Shown: positions 1 to 48,584 of the stretch, one piece after another
Layout: every line of letters starts with the position of its first letter
Numbering within the stretch: position 1 is the stretch's first letter
IMG/VR virus record: IMGVR_UViG_2778261505_000002
Direction: 5' to 3' (one strand)
Length of the DNA stretch: 64,000 bases
Source of the DNA: a virus
Taxonomy: Duplodnaviria > Heunggongvirae > Uroviricota > Caudoviricetes
Notes under the pieces: model-generated
The model's database searches: none
Told to the model about the DNA's origin: nothing
Seen by the model: the letters and a program-made list of their open reading frames with translations, nothing else
Position numbers and translations under genes: made by a program

Positions 1-36
1 GAGAAAATTTCTATCTTTATATTATCCACGAGTAAA

Positions 37-306
37 CTACTCCATGCTTTTCAGACGATCAGCAGCTCGTTTCAGCTTGTCGTTCGGTGCCGGAGGATTG
101 CTTATAGCGTCCATAACCAGATTCCAGGATTCTTCATTCAGAACTAGTCTACGGTGTTGCTCTATAACTTTCACGGCACGTTCAGATGCACTGCTAACCA
201 TAAACTGAGTAATGCTCTGGTTAGACATTGCGGCAGCTTCCTCGATGATGCTTTTATCGTCATCGGTTAATCTCAAATCGATGCGCTGCTTTTTTAGTGC
301 TGACAT
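37..306 (-). CDS. RHH-type antitoxin, DUF1778/TacA-like; partner toxin expected just beyond window start
   Basis: Track ORF 37..345; likely start at internal ATG (304-306) preceded by GGAGG. 89 aa with RIDLRLT...QSITQF N-terminal segment and PPAPNDKLKRA tail, as I recall for DUF1778 antitoxins of GNAT toxins. Confidence 0.5.
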   Translation of the reverse strand: MSALKKQRIDLRLTDDDKSIIEEAAAMSNQSITQFMVSSASERAVKVIEQHRRLVLNEESWNLVMDAISNPPAPNDKLKRAADRLKSME

Positions 307-316
307 GTATTCCTCC

Positions 317-344
317 TGATGGCCGTGATGTAGGAAGGCCATCA
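317..344. promoter_or_regulatory. Inverted repeat TGATGGCC-N12-GGCCATCA upstream of antitoxin start (candidate operator)
   Basis: 8-bp perfect inverted arms read directly, 11-38 bp upstream of the minus-strand start codon. Confidence 0.3.
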
Positions 345-624
345 ATCTCCTCTGTTCAAACTGAGTTTTCGACTCAAAAATTACTTTAAAAGGCTATAGC
401 CCATTACGTGTGCATTATCAAATTGTGTACGGCATATCACCGTACTTGTAATATAGAGGTCATTGTTACTTTTTTCAACAGACAAATACAAGCTATGTTT
501 GCCAATTGTTAATCACAACCTACCATTTAACCTTTACACCGCAGCCGTAGGCATTTAGGCTATATCACATATAAGAAAACAAGTTGTTTCAGACGATAAT
601 TATATACGCAAAGGGAACTCTCCA

Positions 625-1293
625 ATGACCAAGATCTTTGTGGTTGGCGGCACAAAGGGCGGGCCTGGCAAATCCACCGTTGCCCAGCAAATTGCCGTTT
701 GCCTGAAAGTCAAAAAGAAGAAGAAGGTTTATATTACCGATATAGATATTCAGCGCACGACAACGAGCTGGTGTGAAGACCGTCGACAGAACGAAGACCT
801 TGAGCTGATTCCTTTTGCATACGTTCAGGATGACATCATTAAGCACCTAAAATCGCTTCAGGGTAGAGCTGAGTTTGTAGTGGTAGATGCTGGTGGCTTC
901 GACTCCGAAATTCAGCGACAAGCGATGCTGATGGCTGACGTTATCATTATCCCGCTGCGTCCTAAGCGTCGTGATTTGAAATCTTTACGTGACATCGATC
1001 CTATTATCGACAATGTTCGCAATGTAAACGATAAAGTGAAGGTCCGCGCGGTCATGAACCAGTGCCCGGCTTTGCCATCACAAGTGTCTCGCATTCTGGC
1101 GGCTAAAGAGATTGTTGAGACGTTTGGAATCGAGTCTGCGCCAGTCAATCTATATAACCGCAACGTCTATGATGATGCGGAAGAGTCTGGTCGTTCTATC
1201 TTTGAAATGACCGGTAGCGAGCGCGACAAAAAGGCGGAAGCCGAGTTTGAAGAATTTGTAGATTATCTGTTGAGTCTGGAGGAAGAAGAATAA
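625..1293 (+). CDS. parA: ParA/MinD-family partition ATPase (small, type Ib-like)
   Basis: 222 aa; deviant Walker A GGTKGGPGKST near N-terminus; stop overlaps start of a small downstream partner gene. Confidence 0.85.
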   Translation: MTKIFVVGGTKGGPGKSTVAQQIAVCLKVKKKKKVYITDIDIQRTTTSWCEDRRQNEDLELIPFAYVQDDIIKHLKSLQGRAEFVVVDAGGFDSEIQRQAMLMADVIIIPLRPKRRDLKSLRDIDPIIDNVRNVNDKVKVRAVMNQCPALPSQVSRILAAKEIVETFGIESAPVNLYNRNVYDDAEESGRSIFEMTGSERDKKAEAEFEEFVDYLLSLEEEE

Positions 1294-1652
1294 TGTCCAT
1301 GAAAATGGGTGACCTAGCAAAGCGCAAAGAGCCTGATGCACCGGCTAAGAACACAACTCCTTTGCGCCAACCAGTCAGACCACAGGGACGCCCGACTCGT
1401 GGCAAAGAGAAAATTAAAAGCCGCACAATGTCACTGGAGGACGAATACTTCGAACTGCTGGAGATGATGAAGTTCATCCCTCGCTTCGAGAAGTTCACTC
1501 GTTCTGACGTGATTCGAGCAGCCATTTTCCATCTGGCAGAGAAGTCACCGCAGGAAATCGAGGACATCGTGAAATTGAATGAGGCGATCACCGCTGCCGA
1601 TGTCACGATGCGTACCGATGAAATCAAACGAGAGTTGATGAAGAAAGGTTAA
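1293..1652 (+). CDS. Small partition partner protein (ParG/RHH-like centromere-binding protein candidate)
   Basis: 119 aa; start overlaps parA stop (TAATG); basic disordered N-terminus and small C-terminal domain; small-ParA plus small-partner arrangement typical of type Ib par loci. Confidence 0.45.
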   Translation: MSMKMGDLAKRKEPDAPAKNTTPLRQPVRPQGRPTRGKEKIKSRTMSLEDEYFELLEMMKFIPRFEKFTRSDVIRAAIFHLAEKSPQEIEDIVKLNEAITAADVTMRTDEIKRELMKKG

Positions 1653-1657
1653 AAATC

Positions 1658-1688
1658 ATGCATTGGCGCGTACATTGCGCCAATGCAT
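1658..1688. terminator. Bidirectional hairpin between convergent genes
   Basis: Perfect inverted repeat ATGCATTGGCGC-N7-GCGCCAATGCAT between + strand partner gene and - strand GIY-YIG gene. Confidence 0.45.
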
Positions 1689-1704
1689 AACTACAGTGTC
1701 AGCT

Positions 1705-2472
1705 TTATGCCGCGCTAACACTATGTTCAGTCCTAACCACCCCAACCTTCACAAAAGGGCTACCGTAGCTTGGTGGCTTCTTGATTAATTTGCCTACATA
1801 CAGTTTTCTAATATGCTCATCGGCTATTCTGCCAACAAATTCATAACGTTTTGTGTCGGGGCCAAGAGCTATATCCCTTGTAAAGTACTGCTGAGAACCG
1901 GCTTTGACCCAGCATTCAATCTGATAAACTTCCATTATCAGCCCACCATATGTAGCGTAGGCATATTTGAGATTCTCGTCTCTTGGAACCTTTGCCCATA
2001 CGCCACGCGTAGCTTCATATAATGCCAGAGCGGACATTCCTGACTTGTAGGTGCTGTTTAGCAGGAAGGCAAGACCGGCGTGCTCAGGAGCAATTTCAGT
2101 TTCCTCTTGCAGCACTAAGTGATGGTAGGCGTCTAGTGATATTCTGCCCATCATGGAACCACTTCCTCGTACCTTATTCGTAAGCTCTCCGACCCCCATA
2201 AGGTCGATGCATGTCGCCTCAACAAGTTTGGCTGTGGTTTCATCCATACCATGACGAAGTATATCTATGCCTAATTTTTTATTAGCCAAAAGTTCTTTGA
2301 TCCGCATGGATTTGGGAGAGTCATCGGGATACTTGATGTGATCGAGACAACGAGTCGATTTGCCTTTTCCTATGTAAAACGGTCTTTTCATCTTGTCTTC
2401 TGTATCATAGAGACAGTAAACATAGTATTTAGCCTTATCCAATGATCTCGCGTATACCGATAAATCGTCCAT
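1705..2472 (-). CDS. GIY-YIG-motif nuclease-like protein
   Basis: 255 aa; N-terminal YYVYCLYD...RPFYIGKGKSTRCLDH resembles the GIY-YIG catalytic motif (compare UvrC N-terminus); one of very few minus-strand genes in the element. Confidence 0.5.
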   Translation of the reverse strand: MDDLSVYARSLDKAKYYVYCLYDTEDKMKRPFYIGKGKSTRCLDHIKYPDDSPKSMRIKELLANKKLGIDILRHGMDETTAKLVEATCIDLMGVGELTNKVRGSGSMMGRISLDAYHHLVLQEETEIAPEHAGLAFLLNSTYKSGMSALALYEATRGVWAKVPRDENLKYAYATYGGLIMEVYQIECWVKAGSQQYFTRDIALGPDTKRYEFVGRIADEHIRKLYVGKLIKKPPSYGSPFVKVGVVRTEHSVSAA

Positions 2473-2583
2473 TATTGCATCTCTTTGCTACTGACTAATG
2501 CGTTCTATTTTACACATAAGTTTTTAATCAATTTAACAGGCTCAAAGTGTAGAGCTTCTGGGCGTCTAAGACGACAAGTTATG

Positions 2584-2638
2584 CCTGCTTCCGTATATAT
2601 AAATAATAAGTAACTTATTAAATATATACGGAAGCAGG
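2584..2638. repeat. Long hairpin element, copy 1 (17-bp perfect arms CCTGCTTCCGTATATAT, 21-nt loop)
   Basis: Read directly; loop itself is a near-palindrome TAATAAGTAACTTATTA; homologous copy at 48528..48584; followed by T-rich tract. Confidence 0.6.
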
Positions 2639-2754
2639 TCTTTTAAAAGACACCACCAGAACAACTCCCTTCCGTTTCCACTTCCAAAAACTGCCACCAG
2701 TCGCTATCATCCGCTCATTGTGATAAGTAAGTAACTACCTACCAGGTGAGCCAC

Positions 2755-3495
2755 ATGAGCCAAATCTTTTTCGATACCATCGACAACGACCAGTACGACT
2801 TCATGACAGAGTGGAATACCGCTGTTATGGACAAGTGGGTCGCTGAAAACATTGGTTTGTCGCGCTGTAAAGACGAGGCTGAACTCTTCGAGACGAAGTG
2901 GTTTGATTACCGCGACATGCATCCTCTCATGGCCACCTGTCTTTTTACGGAGGCATACAAACGTCAGTACTCAAATATCATGCTGACGCACGGTCGCGAA
3001 CACTTTGAAACAGCTCCGTTCACCACCGGGTTAAAACGTCTGCCTTATCAGGAGTTGTCGACTGCCAATAAAACGTCGCTATGGAAAGCACGCCAGTTTG
3101 CGGATCGCTATTGCTGCTCATACGACTACTTTATCTCCACCGTTCTTTCCGCAGCTGCACGACGGCTGTGGGACAAGCTGCCGCGCCCACAGCATTTATG
3201 GCAGCCAGAACTGATTGAGATATTTGAAGAGAAATTAGCCAGACGCGCAACAACCCGTCTGGATGACTCTCTGGTTAGCTTTAAGCATATGGGAGACATG
3301 CAGTTCAACCCGATTCAGGAAAGCTATTTTGAGTGGATTCTGGAGCGTTTGCGCACCATCCCTCGCAGCAAGCGCATACGCGCAATTTTCTCCGCTATCT
3401 GGCTAATGGAAATCGTTCCAGAGCGCCTTATTTCCGCCCACTTTCCAGAAGAACTGGAAGAAGCACGGCGGTTTATTGATCCCCTATCTAATTAA
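2755..3495 (+). CDS. Hypothetical protein
   Basis: Track ORF 2746..3495 (GTG); ATG at 2755 after AGGTGAG; no recognisable motif. Confidence 0.45.
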   Translation: MSQIFFDTIDNDQYDFMTEWNTAVMDKWVAENIGLSRCKDEAELFETKWFDYRDMHPLMATCLFTEAYKRQYSNIMLTHGREHFETAPFTTGLKRLPYQELSTANKTSLWKARQFADRYCCSYDYFISTVLSAAARRLWDKLPRPQHLWQPELIEIFEEKLARRATTRLDDSLVSFKHMGDMQFNPIQESYFEWILERLRTIPRSKRIRAIFSAIWLMEIVPERLISAHFPEELEEARRFIDPLSN

Positions 3496-3538
3496 CTAAT
3501 ACTAGAAAACAATTTGTTTAAAAAACAAAGGAAAGCAC

Positions 3539-4879
3539 ATGACCGAACTTTGCCATACAGGACGCGGGCTGTCCGAAGAATTTGATGAAGATTTCCAGAA
3601 CAGACTGACGGCATATTTTTGTCGTGATCACGAGTTTCTTACTCGTGCGGGAGATCTGGTTGTGCCTAGCCAGTTTGCCAATGCGGCCAATGCCATATTG
3701 GTTAATATGGTTTCGGGCTATTACCGTATGTACAAGAGCGCGCCCTCTTCATCTGCAATTCTGGATATGCTTAAGCGTGCGAAACGCGATAAGACTATCC
3801 GTGAGGAACTATTCGCCGATGTTGTTGCTGCGTTTAAGCGCATCCTTGCAGAAAAATTGTCCGATACCTCGTACATGGTTGACCAGGTATCAACCTTCGC
3901 AAAAAGTGTAGCGTTTGATGATGCTCTGATTAAGGCTGCTGAACTGAAAGAGAAAGGCGACTTTCAGGGGGCGATGGCAATCATGGCCAAGGTTCAGCAG
4001 ATTGGATCGAACGAAGCGACCGGAATCTATGACTACTACACCTCCGCAAGTGAGCGATTGAAAGCGCGTGAATATGAGGCTTCAGAGGAGTATGTACCAA
4101 ACAGTATTACAACTGGACTCCCTCTTCTCGATAGGTTGCTGTACCAAAAAGGCTGGGCAAAGCGCGAAATGGTGCTCTTCATGGGGTTCGCTAAATCCGG
4201 TAAATCGACCGCAATGGGGGAGTTTTCCATAAACGCAACACTTGCTGGCTACAATGTTCTGTATCTCTCGCTGGAGGTTCACACCACCATTTTATCCGAC
4301 CGTTTTGATGCAAGATTGTCGGAGACGGAAATGTCCAAGTTGGTGGAACGGCGCGATGAAGTTCATCGTAAGTTGGCAGAGTTGGGAGCCTCTAAGGGGA
4401 TTGGTAGTTTGTGGGTTGTTGAGCGTCCGTCAGGAAGTATGTCACCGGCAGATCTGGACCGTATGCTTAACAGTATGAAAGCCAATGGCATGGTGCCTGA
4501 CATGGTTGTTGTCGACTACGCAGATTTGATGCGTGCCAGTTATGACCTTCGTGATGATCGCGCCAACATTCGTAGTATCTACACCGATTTACGTGCTCTT
4601 TATGACAAGCATAACGTTGCTGGGATCACGGCATCGCAGACAAACCGTGAAGGTGGCGCGTCAGAAGTTGCCACAATGATGCACGCTGCCGACAACATCG
4701 AAAAAGTACGTATTGCTGACCTGGTAATAACGATCAACAAAACCGAAGAAGAAGAAGCGAAAGGAGAGGCTCGTCTCTACTTTGCTGGTTCACGTAACCA
4801 GCAGGGAGGGATCAGCATTCGCGTTAAACAAAACCTCGAACAAATGCGCTTCATTGAGCGAATCTTAGACGTTACCTAA
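3539..4879 (+). CDS. DnaB-like replicative DNA helicase
   Basis: 446 aa; RecA-fold core with Walker A GFAKSGKST and Walker B-like VVVDYADLM; conserved upstream AAAGGAAAGCACATG start context. Confidence 0.8.
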   Translation: MTELCHTGRGLSEEFDEDFQNRLTAYFCRDHEFLTRAGDLVVPSQFANAANAILVNMVSGYYRMYKSAPSSSAILDMLKRAKRDKTIREELFADVVAAFKRILAEKLSDTSYMVDQVSTFAKSVAFDDALIKAAELKEKGDFQGAMAIMAKVQQIGSNEATGIYDYYTSASERLKAREYEASEEYVPNSITTGLPLLDRLLYQKGWAKREMVLFMGFAKSGKSTAMGEFSINATLAGYNVLYLSLEVHTTILSDRFDARLSETEMSKLVERRDEVHRKLAELGASKGIGSLWVVERPSGSMSPADLDRMLNSMKANGMVPDMVVVDYADLMRASYDLRDDRANIRSIYTDLRALYDKHNVAGITASQTNREGGASEVATMMHAADNIEKVRIADLVITINKTEEEEAKGEARLYFAGSRNQQGGISIRVKQNLEQMRFIERILDVT

Positions 4880-4960
4880 AAAATAAGCGTGGAGAACACC
4901 TCCACGCTTGATTCATTGGTGAAACAACTTTTCTTTTGCCAAACCACAAAAGAAAAACAC

Positions 4961-6142
4961 ATGAGCCTTTATGTTATATCAACATTTAGGTTGGTCACAA
5001 TATTGCCTGTTAAAAGTGGAATTATCGTGAGCGAGCTGAAAGAGCTAATTACCGAATTAGATTTTGAACAATGGTTGGATACTGAAGGTATCGTTTATCG
5101 ACGTGGAGGCGTGAGTGCTCGCGGTCGTGAAGTGAATATCAAGGAGTGTCCGGTATGCGGCAGCTCCAACTGGAAGGTATATTTCAATCTGACCAGTGGC
5201 GTCGGTAAATGCTTCGCTGGTGATCATCCCGAAGAGATTCAGTTCAATAAGCTGGTCTTCCTCAAGCACTACAGCGGCAAATCACGACGACAGTTCGAGG
5301 AATATGTGCAGAACGCCCTTCTTTCCCAGGGGTGGGCACCAAAGAAAGAAGAGCTAGTGCTTGCAAGCACAGTCGAGTTAGAGGGGCCAGTTGCACTCCC
5401 TCGTCATTACGAGCTTCCTATAGATGGTCGTCTTCCAGACTATCTGGTTGAACGAAACATATCGCCTGAAATGGCAAAGTATTTTGACCTACGATACTGC
5501 GTCGAAGGCAAGCACGCCTATGTAGATCCGTATACAGATCAGGTTAAAGGACAGATATTCGATATGCGAATACTGATACCGGTTTACGATCTGGATGGGG
5601 TAATGAAGACATTTCAGGGACGAGACATTACCGGTACAGCAGAACGCCGCTACCTCTTTCCTATGCAGCTTCCAGCTTCAGGTAAATTTCTCTACAACGG
5701 CCATAATGCAGTCGGCAAACAGACTGTAGTTGTCTGTGAGGGTGCGTTCGATGTTATGGGGGTCAAACGAGCTATTTTCGACGAAGAAACATTACGTGAT
5801 TACGTGGAGCCAATAGGAACGTTCGGGATGCATCTATCTGGCAACACCACTCAGGATGCAGAAGATCAGTTGGGCGCGTTCCTGACGCTCAAGGCGCGTG
5901 GATTACGTAATGTGATCATGATGTGGGATAGTGAAAAGCAAGCTATACGCAACACGATGGCCGCAGCCAGGCGACTGACCAGTATTGGTCTTAATGTCAA
6001 AGTGGCGTGTTTGGGCGAGGAAGGACTCGACCCGGGCGATGCAACGCCAGAGCAAATCATCAAAGCCTATTATCGGGCAAAACCGTATACCAAGCAGTTG
6101 GAGTTGCAAAGCAAGGTTTTGGGCATTAAGGCTCTATCATAA
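4961..6142 (+). CDS. DNA primase (zinc-ribbon plus TOPRIM, DnaG-like)
   Basis: CPVCGSSNW zinc-ribbon and VVVCEGAFDVMG TOPRIM motif; start placed at ATG 4961 with AAAAGAAAAACACATG context (track ORF begins at 4889). Confidence 0.75.
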   Translation: MSLYVISTFRLVTILPVKSGIIVSELKELITELDFEQWLDTEGIVYRRGGVSARGREVNIKECPVCGSSNWKVYFNLTSGVGKCFAGDHPEEIQFNKLVFLKHYSGKSRRQFEEYVQNALLSQGWAPKKEELVLASTVELEGPVALPRHYELPIDGRLPDYLVERNISPEMAKYFDLRYCVEGKHAYVDPYTDQVKGQIFDMRILIPVYDLDGVMKTFQGRDITGTAERRYLFPMQLPASGKFLYNGHNAVGKQTVVVCEGAFDVMGVKRAIFDEETLRDYVEPIGTFGMHLSGNTTQDAEDQLGAFLTLKARGLRNVIMMWDSEKQAIRNTMAAARRLTSIGLNVKVACLGEEGLDPGDATPEQIIKAYYRAKPYTKQLELQSKVLGIKALS

Positions 6143-6217
6143 CAATCACCTTCAAAATAAGTAGATGATTACTTATCTTTCTGTGAGAATACTTTCATCT
6201 GTTAGCTAGGAGTTGGT

Positions 6218-47901: not shown

Positions 47902-48495
47902 ATGATTGCAGCCGAAAAAATCAAACAGCGAAAGCGCGACAACTCTCTTCGTGACCTCTGGAGAACACCTGACTGGCTGTTTTCTGCCATTCAACGTTAT
48001 CTTGGAGTGACATTTGATGTTGACGTTGCCTGCAACAAGGACAATGCAAAGCTGCCTAATTTCATAGGCGTTGAGCGTGATGCTTTGAAATCTGAATGGG
48101 GACAGCCAGGTACAATTGCCTTCCTCAATCCACCCTACTCCAAAATCTACCCCTGGATTGATGCGGCTATACGTGAGCAGGCTCGCGGAGTTACAACAGT
48201 GATGCTAATTCCTCAATCCCTAGATACAAAGTGGTATGAGCGTGCAACAGAGTGTGCGAATGAGACGATTATTCTGTCTGGTGGCCGCGTAGCGTTTGTC
48301 GAGCCTGACGTAAATCTGGGGCAGGTAGAAGTAAACATCAACCCAGGTGGCAGTATGCTCGTTGTTTTTCGAGGATTCTGTCAGGACGCTGGGCACTCTA
48401 TAAGCAAGATCCCTTTGGACGTCATGAAAAGTCTGGGAGGGTATGATCCTGCGAATGTGATCAGGAAAAAAAGACCATCAAAGAAGGCTGCTTAG
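47902..48495 (+). CDS. DNA N6-adenine methyltransferase (phage Dam-like, orphan)
   Basis: 197 aa; WRTPDWLF N-terminal motif and catalytic NPPYS; no adjacent restriction endonuclease gene. Confidence 0.75.
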   Translation: MIAAEKIKQRKRDNSLRDLWRTPDWLFSAIQRYLGVTFDVDVACNKDNAKLPNFIGVERDALKSEWGQPGTIAFLNPPYSKIYPWIDAAIREQARGVTTVMLIPQSLDTKWYERATECANETIILSGGRVAFVEPDVNLGQVEVNINPGGSMLVVFRGFCQDAGHSISKIPLDVMKSLGGYDPANVIRKKRPSKKAA

Positions 48496-48527
48496 TTTGT
48501 TCTGGCGTCTGTAATTAGCCTGCTTCT

Positions 48528-48584
48528 GTATATATAAATAACTACATATTAATTATTAATATACGGAAGAAGGCTGTTTTGTAT
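48528..48584. repeat. Long hairpin element, copy 2 (homolog of 2584..2638)
   Basis: GCCTGCTTCTGTATATAT ... ATATACGGAAGAAGGC imperfect inverted repeat around an AT-rich loop; followed by GTTTTG. Confidence 0.6.

Follow-up and report, generated by a model that had tools for sequence, protein, structure and literature searches.

A divergent PD-T4-3/CMoRE-like nuclease gene is probably a type IV restriction cassette in a variable cargo slot of SSU5-like phage-plasmids

PD-T4-3 was first reported by Vassallo et al. 2022 (PMC9519451) and works in a native E. coli host. PD-T4-3/CMoRE (Cytosine Modification Restriction Endonuclease; structures 9U7U, 9U7Z, 9U75 and 9U8D) shows 5hmC- and ghmC-dependent cleavage and provides direct, non-abortive defence (PMC12923530): it cuts 5hmC and 5ghmC DNA with a CN11/N9G pattern, does not cut C or 5mC DNA, and protects against T-even phages. 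All published CMoRE systems are single-component. The sole described contact of CMoRE with 5hmC is made by a main-chain atom of Y127, and V92 and L96, at the tetramer (dimer) interface, are essential. An acidic loop acts as an autoinhibitory lid, which 'most' family members carry (PMC12923530) and which has been proposed to stop CMoRE from cutting host DNA; the 4A lid mutant is toxic and less specific, and cuts ordinary DNA. A 48%-identical Capnocytophaga homologue is likewise modification-dependent and also cuts Mu DNA, which bears carbamoylmethyl-adenine (PMC12366544), and PD-T4-3 homologues from functional screens are 'almost always' modification-dependent (PMC12366544). Both PD-T4-3 and PD-T7-5 have been recorded in the SSU5-group phage-plasmids of E. 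coli/Shigella by a DefenseFinder survey (10.1101/2025.09.12.675607). Phage-plasmids of the SSU5 type are found in multidrug-resistant lineages of Shigella sonnei, S. Typhi and E. coli, and their known antibiotic-resistance hotspot lies near PhoH and DNA ligase, i.e. elsewhere than the locus described here.

We analysed a 64,000-nucleotide stretch of DNA (the window; IMG/VR record IMGVR_UViG_2778261505_000002), the source of which is an SSU5/pHCM2-type E. coli phage-plasmid. A sequence-only reading of this DNA had pointed to a minus-strand GIY-YIG nuclease-like gene between the partition locus and the replication module, and had taken it to be either a homing endonuclease or an effector regulated together with a divergent neighbour. 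The open reading frame is present and encodes 255 aa, and its position was borne out, with ParA and a 119-aa gene on its left and a DnaB-like helicase and a primase on its right (Table 1). The same reading had counted only three minus-strand genes in the element, a figure that a crude census did not reproduce: up to 10 of the 64 open reading frames of at least 100 aa are on the minus strand, some of them spurious. An Rfam scan of positions 1-6200 returned no relevant family. The 119-aa gene, which had no match in a Pfam search, is presumed from its position to encode the small centromere-binding partner of ParA. From sequence comparison and structure modelling we conclude that the 255-aa gene probably encodes a type IV restriction endonuclease of the PD-T4-3/CMoRE type, carried as an autonomous cassette in a cargo slot of SSU5-like phage-plasmids; it adds a diverged representative to a type already known.

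Table 1. Features of the partition-replication junction, in window coordinates.
Feature	Position	Strand	Basis and remarks
ParA-type partition ATPase	625..1293	+	Pfam MipZ, AAA_31, CbiA, ParA; PHROG 164 ParA-like; left side of the slot's operon
Small par gene, 119 aa	1293..1652	+	PHROG 5111; translationally coupled to parA, ATGA overlap seen in sequence
Variable cargo cassette, 933 bp	1651..2583	.	Sole par-rep segment replaced in relatives
Cassette hairpin and T-run (GATTTTTAACC)	1658..1688	-	12-nt perfect arms; RNA fold -25.1 kcal/mol, z = -5.9
PD-T4-3/CMoRE-family nuclease gene, 255 aa	1705..2472	-	PADLOC, PDB, Foldseek, PHROG 5356
C-terminal domain (~residues 110-245)	1738..2145	-	Homologous to CMoRE modification-sensing domain (alignment through residue 230)
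N-terminal GIY-YIG stretch	2161..2439	-	PF22945 above cut-off; invariant residues; UvrC next-best fold
Candidate weak nuclease promoter, TTAAAT, 18-nt spacer, TAAAAT	2507..2536	-	Relaxed hexamer scan, 8/12; ~35 nt upstream of ATG
Backbone hairpin and TCTTTT tail	2584..2644	+	Intrinsic terminator closing par operon and slot; right edge of slot
Leader/promoter region of replication module, conserved backbone	2645..2754	+	Contains ATAAGTAAGTAAC motif
All-alpha backbone gene, 246 aa	2755..3495	+	PHROG 2500; directly upstream of helicase; outside nuclease system
DnaB-like helicase	3539-4879		Downstream of 246-aa gene
Primase	4889-6142		Replication side

The GIY-YIG assignment held up in a profile search, in which PF22945 (LEM-3_GIY-YIG) matched residues 32-104 with 30.1 bits, the Pfam call being made against the curated threshold of 27 bits for this family. 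The PADLOC PD-T4-3 profile matched over almost the whole protein (E 1.3e-23, 81.9 bits; residues 11-231 against profile positions 11-238 of 256), and the sole matches found by phmmer in the PDB were 9U7U/9U7Z and 9U75/9U8D (E 2e-15), with an alignment to 9U7U/9U75 that spans both domains (residues 12-230 against chain residues 17-243). When the AF2 model of the protein (pLDDT 84.5) was searched with Foldseek, the top four hits were PD-T4-3 crystal structures (E 4.7e-12 to 1.3e-10, probability 1.0), the best being 9u75 and 9u7u (E 4.7e-12, ~246 aligned columns), and the UvrC GIY-YIG domains (PDB 1YCZ and 1YD6) ranked next after CMoRE (probability 0.99). The global TM-scores between the model and the PD-T4-3 crystal structures, computed over both domains together, were low (0.35-0.38), which probably reflects a different placement of one domain against the other on either side of a flexible linker. 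We found at least 288 homologues in many contexts, at least 120 of which are 50-79% identical to the nuclease; the subfamily is named by NCBI 'LEM-3-like GIY-YIG domain-containing protein'.

The catalytic Tyr, Arg and Glu proved intact. Residues Y17, Y19, Y33, R41, E85 and N99 (i.e. the Tyr, Arg, Glu and Asn positions) are invariant in 34 homologues and align with Y17, Y19, Y31, R39, E93 and N105 of CMoRE; the three-tyrosine 'GIYxY-YIG' motif of the CMoRE family is matched column for column, by Y17/Y19/Y33. The pattern also agrees with residues R39, E76 and N88 of UvrC, as reportedly described by Truglio et al. in 2005. The likeness to the UvrC N-terminal domain (1YCZ, 1YD6) includes the fold of the catalytic domain and its Y/Y/R/E/N set of residues, but it is limited to these ~90 residues, and UvrC, which acts in repair, carries other domains and no modification sensor. 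In contrast, the resemblance to PD-T4-3/CMoRE covers the C-terminal domain end to end as well as the N-terminal GIY-YIG domain with its family-specific YxY...YIG and its catalytic Arg, Glu and Asn, i.e. the type I (two-domain) architecture; both are also single genes of similar length (255 aa here, 262-residue solved chains for CMoRE) and both are borne by mobile elements. The nuclease belongs to a separate subfamily. As it is only about 26-30% identical to the characterised enzymes, its substrate specificity may differ.

The C-terminal domain was modelled with a pLDDT mostly of 85-95. Because the described 5hmC contact uses a main-chain atom, conservation of the ligand site is not readable from sequence. 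At the dimer interface, the equivalent of V92 is V84, which is conserved, whereas the equivalent of L96 is a Cys (C88), which is invariant in the subfamily. The lid differs too: the nuclease lacks the alpha2-alpha3 loop that carries four acidic residues in a row. The alpha2-alpha3 segment of CMoRE (HMRGEVAAVDDDELLNNK) has 18 residues with a DDDE run, whereas that of the nuclease (HIKYPDDSPKSMR) has 13, of which 2 are acidic and 3 basic; the 15-residue acidic autoinhibitory loop of CMoRE is thus 5 residues shorter and not acidic here. An acidic run of four occurs in just 4 of the 34 members of the subfamily.

The gene lies in a segment that is exchanged among relatives. In BLAST comparisons with phages Cyrano and SSU5 the breakpoints fall at 1650 and at 2574-2584, and the slot begins at the small par gene's stop codon, its left edge, where homology to relatives stops (1650), and extends to the conserved terminator hairpin (2584-2638). 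Across 77 related IMG/VR loci the slot is 31 to 2040 bp long and has at least 11 different contents: the nuclease (26 loci), PD-T7-5 (E 4.5e-139), DUF2971/PDC-S31, KAP-NTPase/PDC-S49 and unknown genes, with the slot empty in 5. The unannotated occupants are a 351-357-aa protein, a pair of membrane proteins (214 aa and 136 aa) and a 225-aa lipoprotein. The nuclease is thus polymorphic for presence and absence, both in these loci and in complete E. coli genomes, where the cassette was found in 107 of the 259 that carry the backbone gene, plasmid-borne without exception. The gene is 98-100% identical across the 107 genomes, and the cassette is 99% identical where the flanks share 85-93% identity, indicating transfer between lineages together with very little flanking DNA. 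Orthologues ~75% identical to the nuclease occur as single genes on the chromosomes of Providencia, Shewanella and others, where the surroundings are unrelated; their neighbours are different in each context looked at. In our literature search there was no description of a slot between par stop codon and terminator in SSU5-type phage-plasmids.

The nuclease cassette contains one open reading frame of at least 70 aa. The hairpin at its left end is likely to be the intrinsic terminator of the nuclease gene, which would also halt read-through from par, and other cassettes likewise open with a hairpin of their own directly after the par stop codon. A scan of positions 1500-3600 for consensus promoters and terminators returned no promoter and flagged neither hairpin, and strict and relaxed scans gave no clear sigma-70 promoter for the nuclease gene; the candidate in Table 1 is the weak one.

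The intergenic hairpin noticed from the letters alone is real, with 17-nt perfect arms (2584-2600 and 2622-2638; -32.4 kcal/mol, z = -9.0), and recurs once more in the window, at 48519-48573. It was present in all 82 loci examined, in most of which TCTTT follows, and in loci with an empty slot it lies 31-32 nt past the par stop codon. Of its 46 sequence variants, 41 form the better fold as plus-strand RNA, owing to U-G wobbles. The idea of a shared operator or DNA cruciform was set aside, as only the plus strand keeps the wobbles, the hairpin is followed by a T-run, and the par operon directly precedes it in empty loci. The hairpin may nevertheless also serve as a binding site for a protein, since its loop includes a palindromic variant of the ATAAGTAAGTA motif. 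The half-site ATAAGTAAGTAAC is likewise present (2723-2735), and its motif occurs 8 times in the window, where 1.25 occurrences are expected. Downstream of the hairpin, the blocks CCCTTC.GTTTCCACTTCCAAAA, CCAGTCGCTATGAT and GATAAGTAAGTA..TACCTA are kept across elements that are ~80% identical overall. What had been read as one shared divergent control region is made up of two parts, one belonging to the cassette (2473-2583) and one to the backbone (2584-2754), and a terminator sets them apart.

The divergent neighbour exists, but its length was given as 247 aa; the open reading frame (2746-3495) encodes 249 aa from the GTG at 2746 and 246 aa from the conserved ATG at 2755, which is preceded by the Shine-Dalgarno sequence AGGTGAG and kept in 12 diverged relatives. 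The protein has no Pfam, NCBIfam or PADLOC match, and a fold search with its AF2 model (pLDDT 87.3) gave no significant match. Its family comprises 40 homologues, those in large contigs being on ~100-kb SSU5-like replicons. As a guess, it may be a loader for the adjacent DnaB-like helicase. The gene accompanies every slot content, and also the empty slot; it is part of the backbone and is cut off from the cassette by the terminator.

These data bear on both readings proposed for the gene at the outset. A free-standing homing endonuclease of the Seg or I-TevI type, which would cut cargo-free par-rep junctions and be copied in by recombinational repair, would share with the nuclease a GIY-YIG catalytic core, an intergenic location between conserved phage genes and a presence/absence polymorphism, and the 5 empty loci among 77 and the movement of a 99%-identical cassette amid 85-93%-identical flanks are what it would lead one to expect. 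However, the C-terminal half of the nuclease resembles the CMoRE sensor and not the NUMOD, zinc-finger or HTH modules of I-TevI and T4 Seg, and Pfam and NCBIfam searches at E-values up to 1 returned no other domain, i.e. no homing-type DNA-binding module. The slot is common to unrelated cargos (the 357-aa protein, DUF2971, the KAP NTPase and PD-T7-5), which are defence or candidate defence genes, in both backbone lineages, and since these non-nuclease cargos are exchanged likewise, slot exchange needs no resident endonuclease. In place of a simple filled/empty polymorphism with relatives confined to a homing site, we found at least ten other cargos, and orthologues ~75% identical that are single genes in bacterial chromosomes, in unrelated contexts. 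We therefore rejected homing, which we now consider very improbable. A system of two genes, with the nuclease as effector and the 246-aa gene as regulator or immunity protein, or with a control region common to both, could draw on the adjacent divergent arrangement and on a structured intergenic region with a hairpin and a recurrent motif. Against it, the 246-aa gene is present whatever the slot holds, its family seems confined to SSU5-like replicons while the nuclease family is found in many contexts, no 246-aa homologue lies beside the chromosomal nuclease orthologues, hairpin and motif are features of the backbone and not of the cassette, the hairpin behaves like a terminator in plus-strand RNA that separates the genes, and the published CMoRE systems are single-component. 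The co-occurrence data, together with the backbone/cassette boundary inside the intergenic region, led us to reject a divergent two-gene operon and with it co-regulation; there is hardly any probability left for it. As one of many interchangeable cargos in a fixed slot, the nuclease is most probably neither a homing endonuclease nor the partner of its neighbour.

A third alternative concerns specificity, namely that the protein shares the fold of CMoRE and acts in defence but has another trigger or specificity, e.g. modified adenine, arabinosyl-hmC or a looser dependence on modification. The low identity to CMoRE (about 30%) and the shortened, no longer acidic lid speak for this, as do the toxicity of the 4A lid mutant and its cleavage of ordinary DNA, and cleavage of Mu DNA by the Capnocytophaga homologue shows that specificity within the family is plastic (PMC12366544). 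On the other side, both domains of the nuclease are conserved end to end, homologues from functional screens are nearly all modification-dependent, and stable carriage in the 107 E. coli genomes argues against appreciable self-toxicity. We consider this alternative unlikely. The reading as a PD-T4-3/CMoRE-type enzyme is thus preferred. The data show family membership by sequence and fold, conservation of the catalytic residues, the limits of the cassette, the polymorphism of the slot and independence from the 246-aa gene; from these we infer for the 255-aa protein its nuclease activity, modification dependence, the modification recognised and the phage range.

By homology with CMoRE, the C-terminal domain would recognise hypermodified bases of incoming phage DNA, which in the characterised enzymes are 5-hydroxymethyl- and glucosyl-hydroxymethyl-cytosine, and the N-terminal GIY-YIG domain (Y17/Y19/Y33, R41, E85 and N99) would then cut the modified phage DNA. 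The host cell and the resident phage-plasmid would in this way be shielded from T-even-like phages without cell death. The nuclease cassette is autonomous, with its own likely terminator and candidate promoter, and the slot of SSU5-like phage-plasmids holds defence or candidate defence genes that vary by element, or nothing, with cassettes being swapped between diverged backbones. The slot has a fixed position between conserved genes, and its defence cassettes, which replace one another or are stacked, have their own insulating hairpins and are exchanged among relatives. In this it resembles the defence hotspots of temperate phages and satellites (P2/P4; PMC13586616) and the prophage and mobile-element cargo loci of Vassallo et al. 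2022; unlike these, it is at the par-rep junction of the SSU5 type, between the last stop codon of the par operon and the terminator of that operon.

Taken alone the nuclease is ordinary, being a diverged version of an enzyme whose structure was solved recently, in a place where defence surveys already detect PD-T4-3. The analysis proposes a function and a mechanism for a gene named only 'LEM-3-like GIY-YIG', which is present in ~40% of the complete E. coli genomes with an SSU5-like backbone gene. A more far-reaching proposal, which we put forward tentatively and regard as possible, is that the lid-less CMoRE-like subfamily of the nuclease has another safeguard or modification spectrum, and that the slot between par stop codon and terminator is an undescribed defence hotspot. 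Such a natural lid-less subfamily is a ready test of the lid model, because the lid was proposed to spare host DNA from CMoRE. The slot is precise and searchable (par stop codon, cargo, conserved terminator), with the AAAGG-stop end of the par gene and the CCTG[CT]TTC hairpin as its two anchors, and about 740 PLSDB plasmids have this backbone. It is a source of several uncharacterised candidate defence genes; if the hotspot reading is true, the 351-357-aa protein, the membrane pair and the lipoprotein would be new anti-phage genes. Because these phage-plasmids occur in multidrug-resistant lineages, their anti-phage cargo may be relevant to therapy with T-even-like phages.

The 255-aa GIY-YIG protein of the window belongs to a known and recently characterised defence family, PD-T4-3/CMoRE (Cytosine Modification Restriction Endonuclease), as a new and divergent member. 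Its GIY-YIG identity, as proposed in the sequence-only reading, is confirmed by Pfam family PF22945 (LEM-3_GIY-YIG; 30.1 bits against a curated cut-off of 27), and PADLOC matches it to PD-T4-3 over almost the entire profile (E 1.3e-23). When all PDB chains were searched by sequence, the sole matches were the PD-T4-3 structures 9U7U/9U7Z (E 2e-15) and 9U75/9U8D (E 3.5e-15), spanning residues 12-230 i.e. both domains. An AlphaFold2 model built from 34 homologues (pLDDT 84.5, pTM 0.80) was compared with known structures by Foldseek; the four PD-T4-3 entries ranked first (E 4.7e-12 to 1.3e-10, probability 1.0, 246-263 aligned columns), ahead of UvrC GIY-YIG domains. The global TM-score against the PD-T4-3 entries was low (0.35-0.38), most likely because the two domains are oriented differently relative to each other across a linker that is disordered in the model (pLDDT <50 at residues 95-107). 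Below the CMoRE and UvrC hits, the C-terminal domain gave many weak matches (E 0.3-1.5, probability 0.05-0.15) to YTH m6A-reader domains and to VcaM4I (6yex), a modification-dependent restriction enzyme; this domain might be distantly PUA-like/YTH-like.

Across 34 aligned family members (50-79% identity), residues Y17, Y19, Y33, R41, E85 and N99 never vary, and alignment together with the two crystallised proteins places them in the columns of CMoRE Y17, Y19, Y31, R39, E93 and N105; the third tyrosine (Y33), which defines the 'GIYxY-YIG' variant for the CMoRE authors, is kept. The Tyr/Arg/Glu residues that had been singled out for checking are thus conserved, and the window nuclease looks active.

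Vassallo et al. first recovered PD-T4-3 in a functional selection (PMC9519451), and later work described it as CMoRE, a single-component type IV restriction endonuclease that is active as a tetramer, binds 5hmC with its C-terminal domain, cuts 5hmC- or glucosyl-5hmC-DNA with its N-terminal GIY-YIG domain (pattern CN11/N9G) and protects directly and non-abortively against T2, T4 and T6; its authors report no structural homologue of the C-terminal domain (PMC12923530). The window nuclease is about 26-30% identical to CMoRE and differs in the alpha2-alpha3 'lid', which in CMoRE includes four consecutive acidic residues whose replacement makes the enzyme more active, less specific and toxic (PMC12923530). 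The lid segment is HMRGEVAAVDDDELLNNK in CMoRE and HIKYPDDSPKSMR in the window nuclease, where it is 5 residues shorter, with 2 acidic and 3 basic residues, i.e. the acidic lid is not conserved; an acidic run of four occurs in only 4 of the 34 subfamily members. The absent lid lessens the similarity to CMoRE and does not exclude membership, because 'most', not all, CMoRE systems have the acidic loop (PMC12923530). The specificity of the lid-less subfamily may differ from that of CMoRE, as may its way of sparing host DNA. Specificity within the family is plastic, since one Capnocytophaga homologue accepts as substrates not only T4 DNA but also Mu DNA with its modified adenine (PMC12366544).

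The nuclease gene lies in an element whose first 6.2 kb (window 1-6.2 kb) share 99.8% identity with the ∼110-kb E. coli plasmids NZ_CP023851 and CP056788, 98-99% with Escherichia phages CMS-2020a, PhiR41_1 and Cyrano, and 82% with Salmonella phage SSU5; judged by these identities, the element is an SSU5/pHCM2-type phage-plasmid. Both ORFs of the sequence-only reading exist, and the nuclease gene does sit between partition genes on the left and replication genes on the right (see table). Its neighbour, given in that reading as 247 aa, has 246 aa from the conserved ATG, the GTG at 2746 not being conserved in relatives. Minus-strand genes are indeed a small minority, although a count of exactly three could not be reproduced. 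The position and coupling of the 119-aa gene suggest a small centromere-binding partner of type Ib ParA; phage Cyrano labels it 'RelE/ParE putative toxin', an annotation that Pfam does not support and that is probably wrong. In matching plasmids the partner of the TacA-type antitoxin is a GNAT acetyltransferase toxin, which the phage Cyrano annotation calls KacT; SSU5 and PhiR41_1 have other genes in place of the antitoxin, which makes the region left of parA variable as well. Plasmids NZ_CP017847 and NZ_CP028433 carry IS100 or IS1203 insertions inside the par-rep region (window 1-6200 equivalent), which therefore tolerates IS insertion as well.

Features of the par-rep region and related elements (window positions)
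Feature	Position	Strand	Remark
tacA-like antitoxin	37-345	-	Pfam TacA1, E 8.6e-26; upstream of parA, runs past the window's left end
ParA	625-1293	+	
119-aa gene	1293-1652	+	translationally coupled to parA
Cassette hairpin	1658-1688		
255-aa GIY-YIG ORF	1705-2472	-	Pfam PF22945
Cassette-owned intergenic part	2473-2583		
Candidate weak promoter, at best	2507-2536		within cassette part
Backbone-owned intergenic part	2584-2754		
Backbone hairpin arms	2584-2600, 2622-2638		
Motif half-site	2723-2735		
246/249-aa ORF	end at 3495	+	conserved ATG 2755 (246 aa)
DnaB-like helicase	3539-4879	+	
DnaG-like primase	4889-6142	+	
Second hairpin copy	48519-48573		
Motif 13-mer starts	2723, 9686, 12258, 18755, 21778, 25305, 30128, 33642	both	

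Homology to phages Cyrano and SSU5 breaks off at 1650, at the stop codon of the 119-aa gene, and picks up again at 2574-2584, at the foot of the backbone hairpin. Using the 246-aa protein we collected 80 IMG/VR loci, and both anchors could be placed in 77 loci (74 of these plus three phage loci), with 31 to 2040 bp between them. The inserts were clustered and representatives scanned with PADLOC and Pfam. The GIY-YIG cassette filled the slot in 26 of the 77 loci and a 357-aa protein with no function assigned in 13. A DUF2971 protein (candidate PDC-S31) was found alone in 10, with two membrane proteins in 4, with a 351-aa homologue of the 357-aa protein in 4 and with PD-T7-5 in 2; the remainder held a KAP-type P-loop NTPase (PADLOC candidate PDC-S49; 6), PD-T7-5 alone (2; E 4.5e-139), the membrane-protein pair alone (4), a lipoprotein (1) or nothing (5, with 31-32 nt between par stop codon and hairpin). 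PADLOC gave no match to the 351-357-aa protein, the membrane-protein pair or the lipoprotein, nor did Pfam at its curated cut-off; their alternation with PD-T4-3, PD-T7-5, PDC-S31 and PDC-S49 makes them candidates for new defence or exclusion genes. The first occurs in 17 loci, the pair (214 aa and 136 aa) in 8 and the lipoprotein (225 aa) in 1; examples of slots are related loci L012 (3600-4840), L050 (3705-4827) and L067 (3919-4843). A recent DefenseFinder survey had already recorded both PD-T4-3 and PD-T7-5 in SSU5-group phage-plasmids of E. coli and Shigella (10.1101/2025.09.12.675607). In the literature searched we found no description of the par-rep cargo slot, which is cleanly defined here.

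Cassette identity is ∼99% among backbones whose 246-aa protein matches the window's at 98-100%, and just as high among those with a more distant version of the protein (90-92%) and flanking DNA at 85-93% identity, so the cassette is exchanged between lineages. Among 5,426 complete E. coli genomes, 107 carry the cassette and 259 the backbone gene, all copies being on plasmids and none on chromosomes. Of the cassette, plasmid NZ_CP107722 retains just the first 158 bp (the par-gene end, hairpin included), perhaps left over from a cassette replacement or from a deletion.

The sequence-only reading offered a homing endonuclease or a nuclease effector regulated together with its neighbour. The presence/absence polymorphism expected of the former is found among relatives, as the slot counts show. 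However, the 357-aa cargo is distributed across backbones in the same way, so exchange needs no resident nuclease, and orthologues sharing ∼75% identity with the window nuclease stand alone among unrelated neighbours (in Providencia in a variable segment close to mutS, in Shewanella baltica close to metH, and in an uncultured genome close to an integrase and IS110 elements), which speaks against a homing enzyme tied to one site. None of these three has a 246-aa-type neighbour, which likewise speaks against a two-gene system and agrees with the single-component nature of CMoRE. The 246-aa gene is not tied to the nuclease; invariably present and lying 44 nt upstream of the helicase gene, it may encode a replication accessory protein, e.g. 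a helicase loader or initiator. The sequence-only reading is therefore partly right: the nuclease-effector part stands, but neither homing nor co-regulation with the neighbour does.

Nor is the intergenic region a shared divergent control region: it is a composite of a cassette part and a backbone part with a probable terminator between them. The backbone hairpin, real as claimed, is very stable (-32.4 kcal/mol, z = -9) and kept in 82 of 82 loci examined. Its variants are mainly C-to-T changes in the 5' arm facing G in the 3' arm, i.e. U-G wobbles in plus-strand RNA and C-A mismatches in minus-strand RNA, and for 41 of 46 distinct variants the plus-strand RNA fold is the better one (mean -22.6 vs -18.3 kcal/mol), a trend rather than an independent statistic as the sequences are related. 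Given this bias, the TCTTT directly following in nearly all variants and the hairpin's place right after the par operon in empty loci, it is best read as a plus-strand intrinsic terminator closing the par operon and cargo slot. The hairpin's other copy (1 and 3 arm mismatches, -21.1 kcal/mol) lies just 3' of plus-strand ORF 47902-48495, is followed by TGTTTTG and looks like another terminator from this sequence family. Every cassette opens with its own hairpin directly after the par stop codon; the window's, followed on the minus-strand side by GATTTTT, would terminate the nuclease gene. Three blocks 3' of the backbone hairpin are conserved in elements only ∼80% identical overall, including GATAAGTAAGTA..TACCTA just upstream of the 246-aa gene, and are probably a promoter or operator of the replication module. 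The half-site noted earlier is also real and is kept in diverged relatives: motif ATAAGTAAGTA(AC) has 8 window sites, a number reached by none of 100 shuffles, where 1.25 are expected. Six or more of the sites lie in AT-rich, seemingly intergenic, promoter-like stretches, and the motif may be a phage-specific promoter or operator element. The loop of the backbone hairpin is a palindromic variant, AATAAGTAACTTATT.

Family membership, intact catalytic residues, cassette autonomy and hotspot context are the established steps of the mechanism that we propose. The resident phage-plasmid would express the CMoRE-like enzyme; when a T-even-like phage with hypermodified DNA injects its genome, the C-terminal domain would bind the modified bases and the GIY-YIG domain would then make double-strand cuts, stopping infection at the DNA stage with the cell not killed, and host and phage-plasmid DNA would be spared since they are unmodified. 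Here we infer activity, modification dependence, the exact modification recognised and the avoidance of self-cleavage without an acidic lid.
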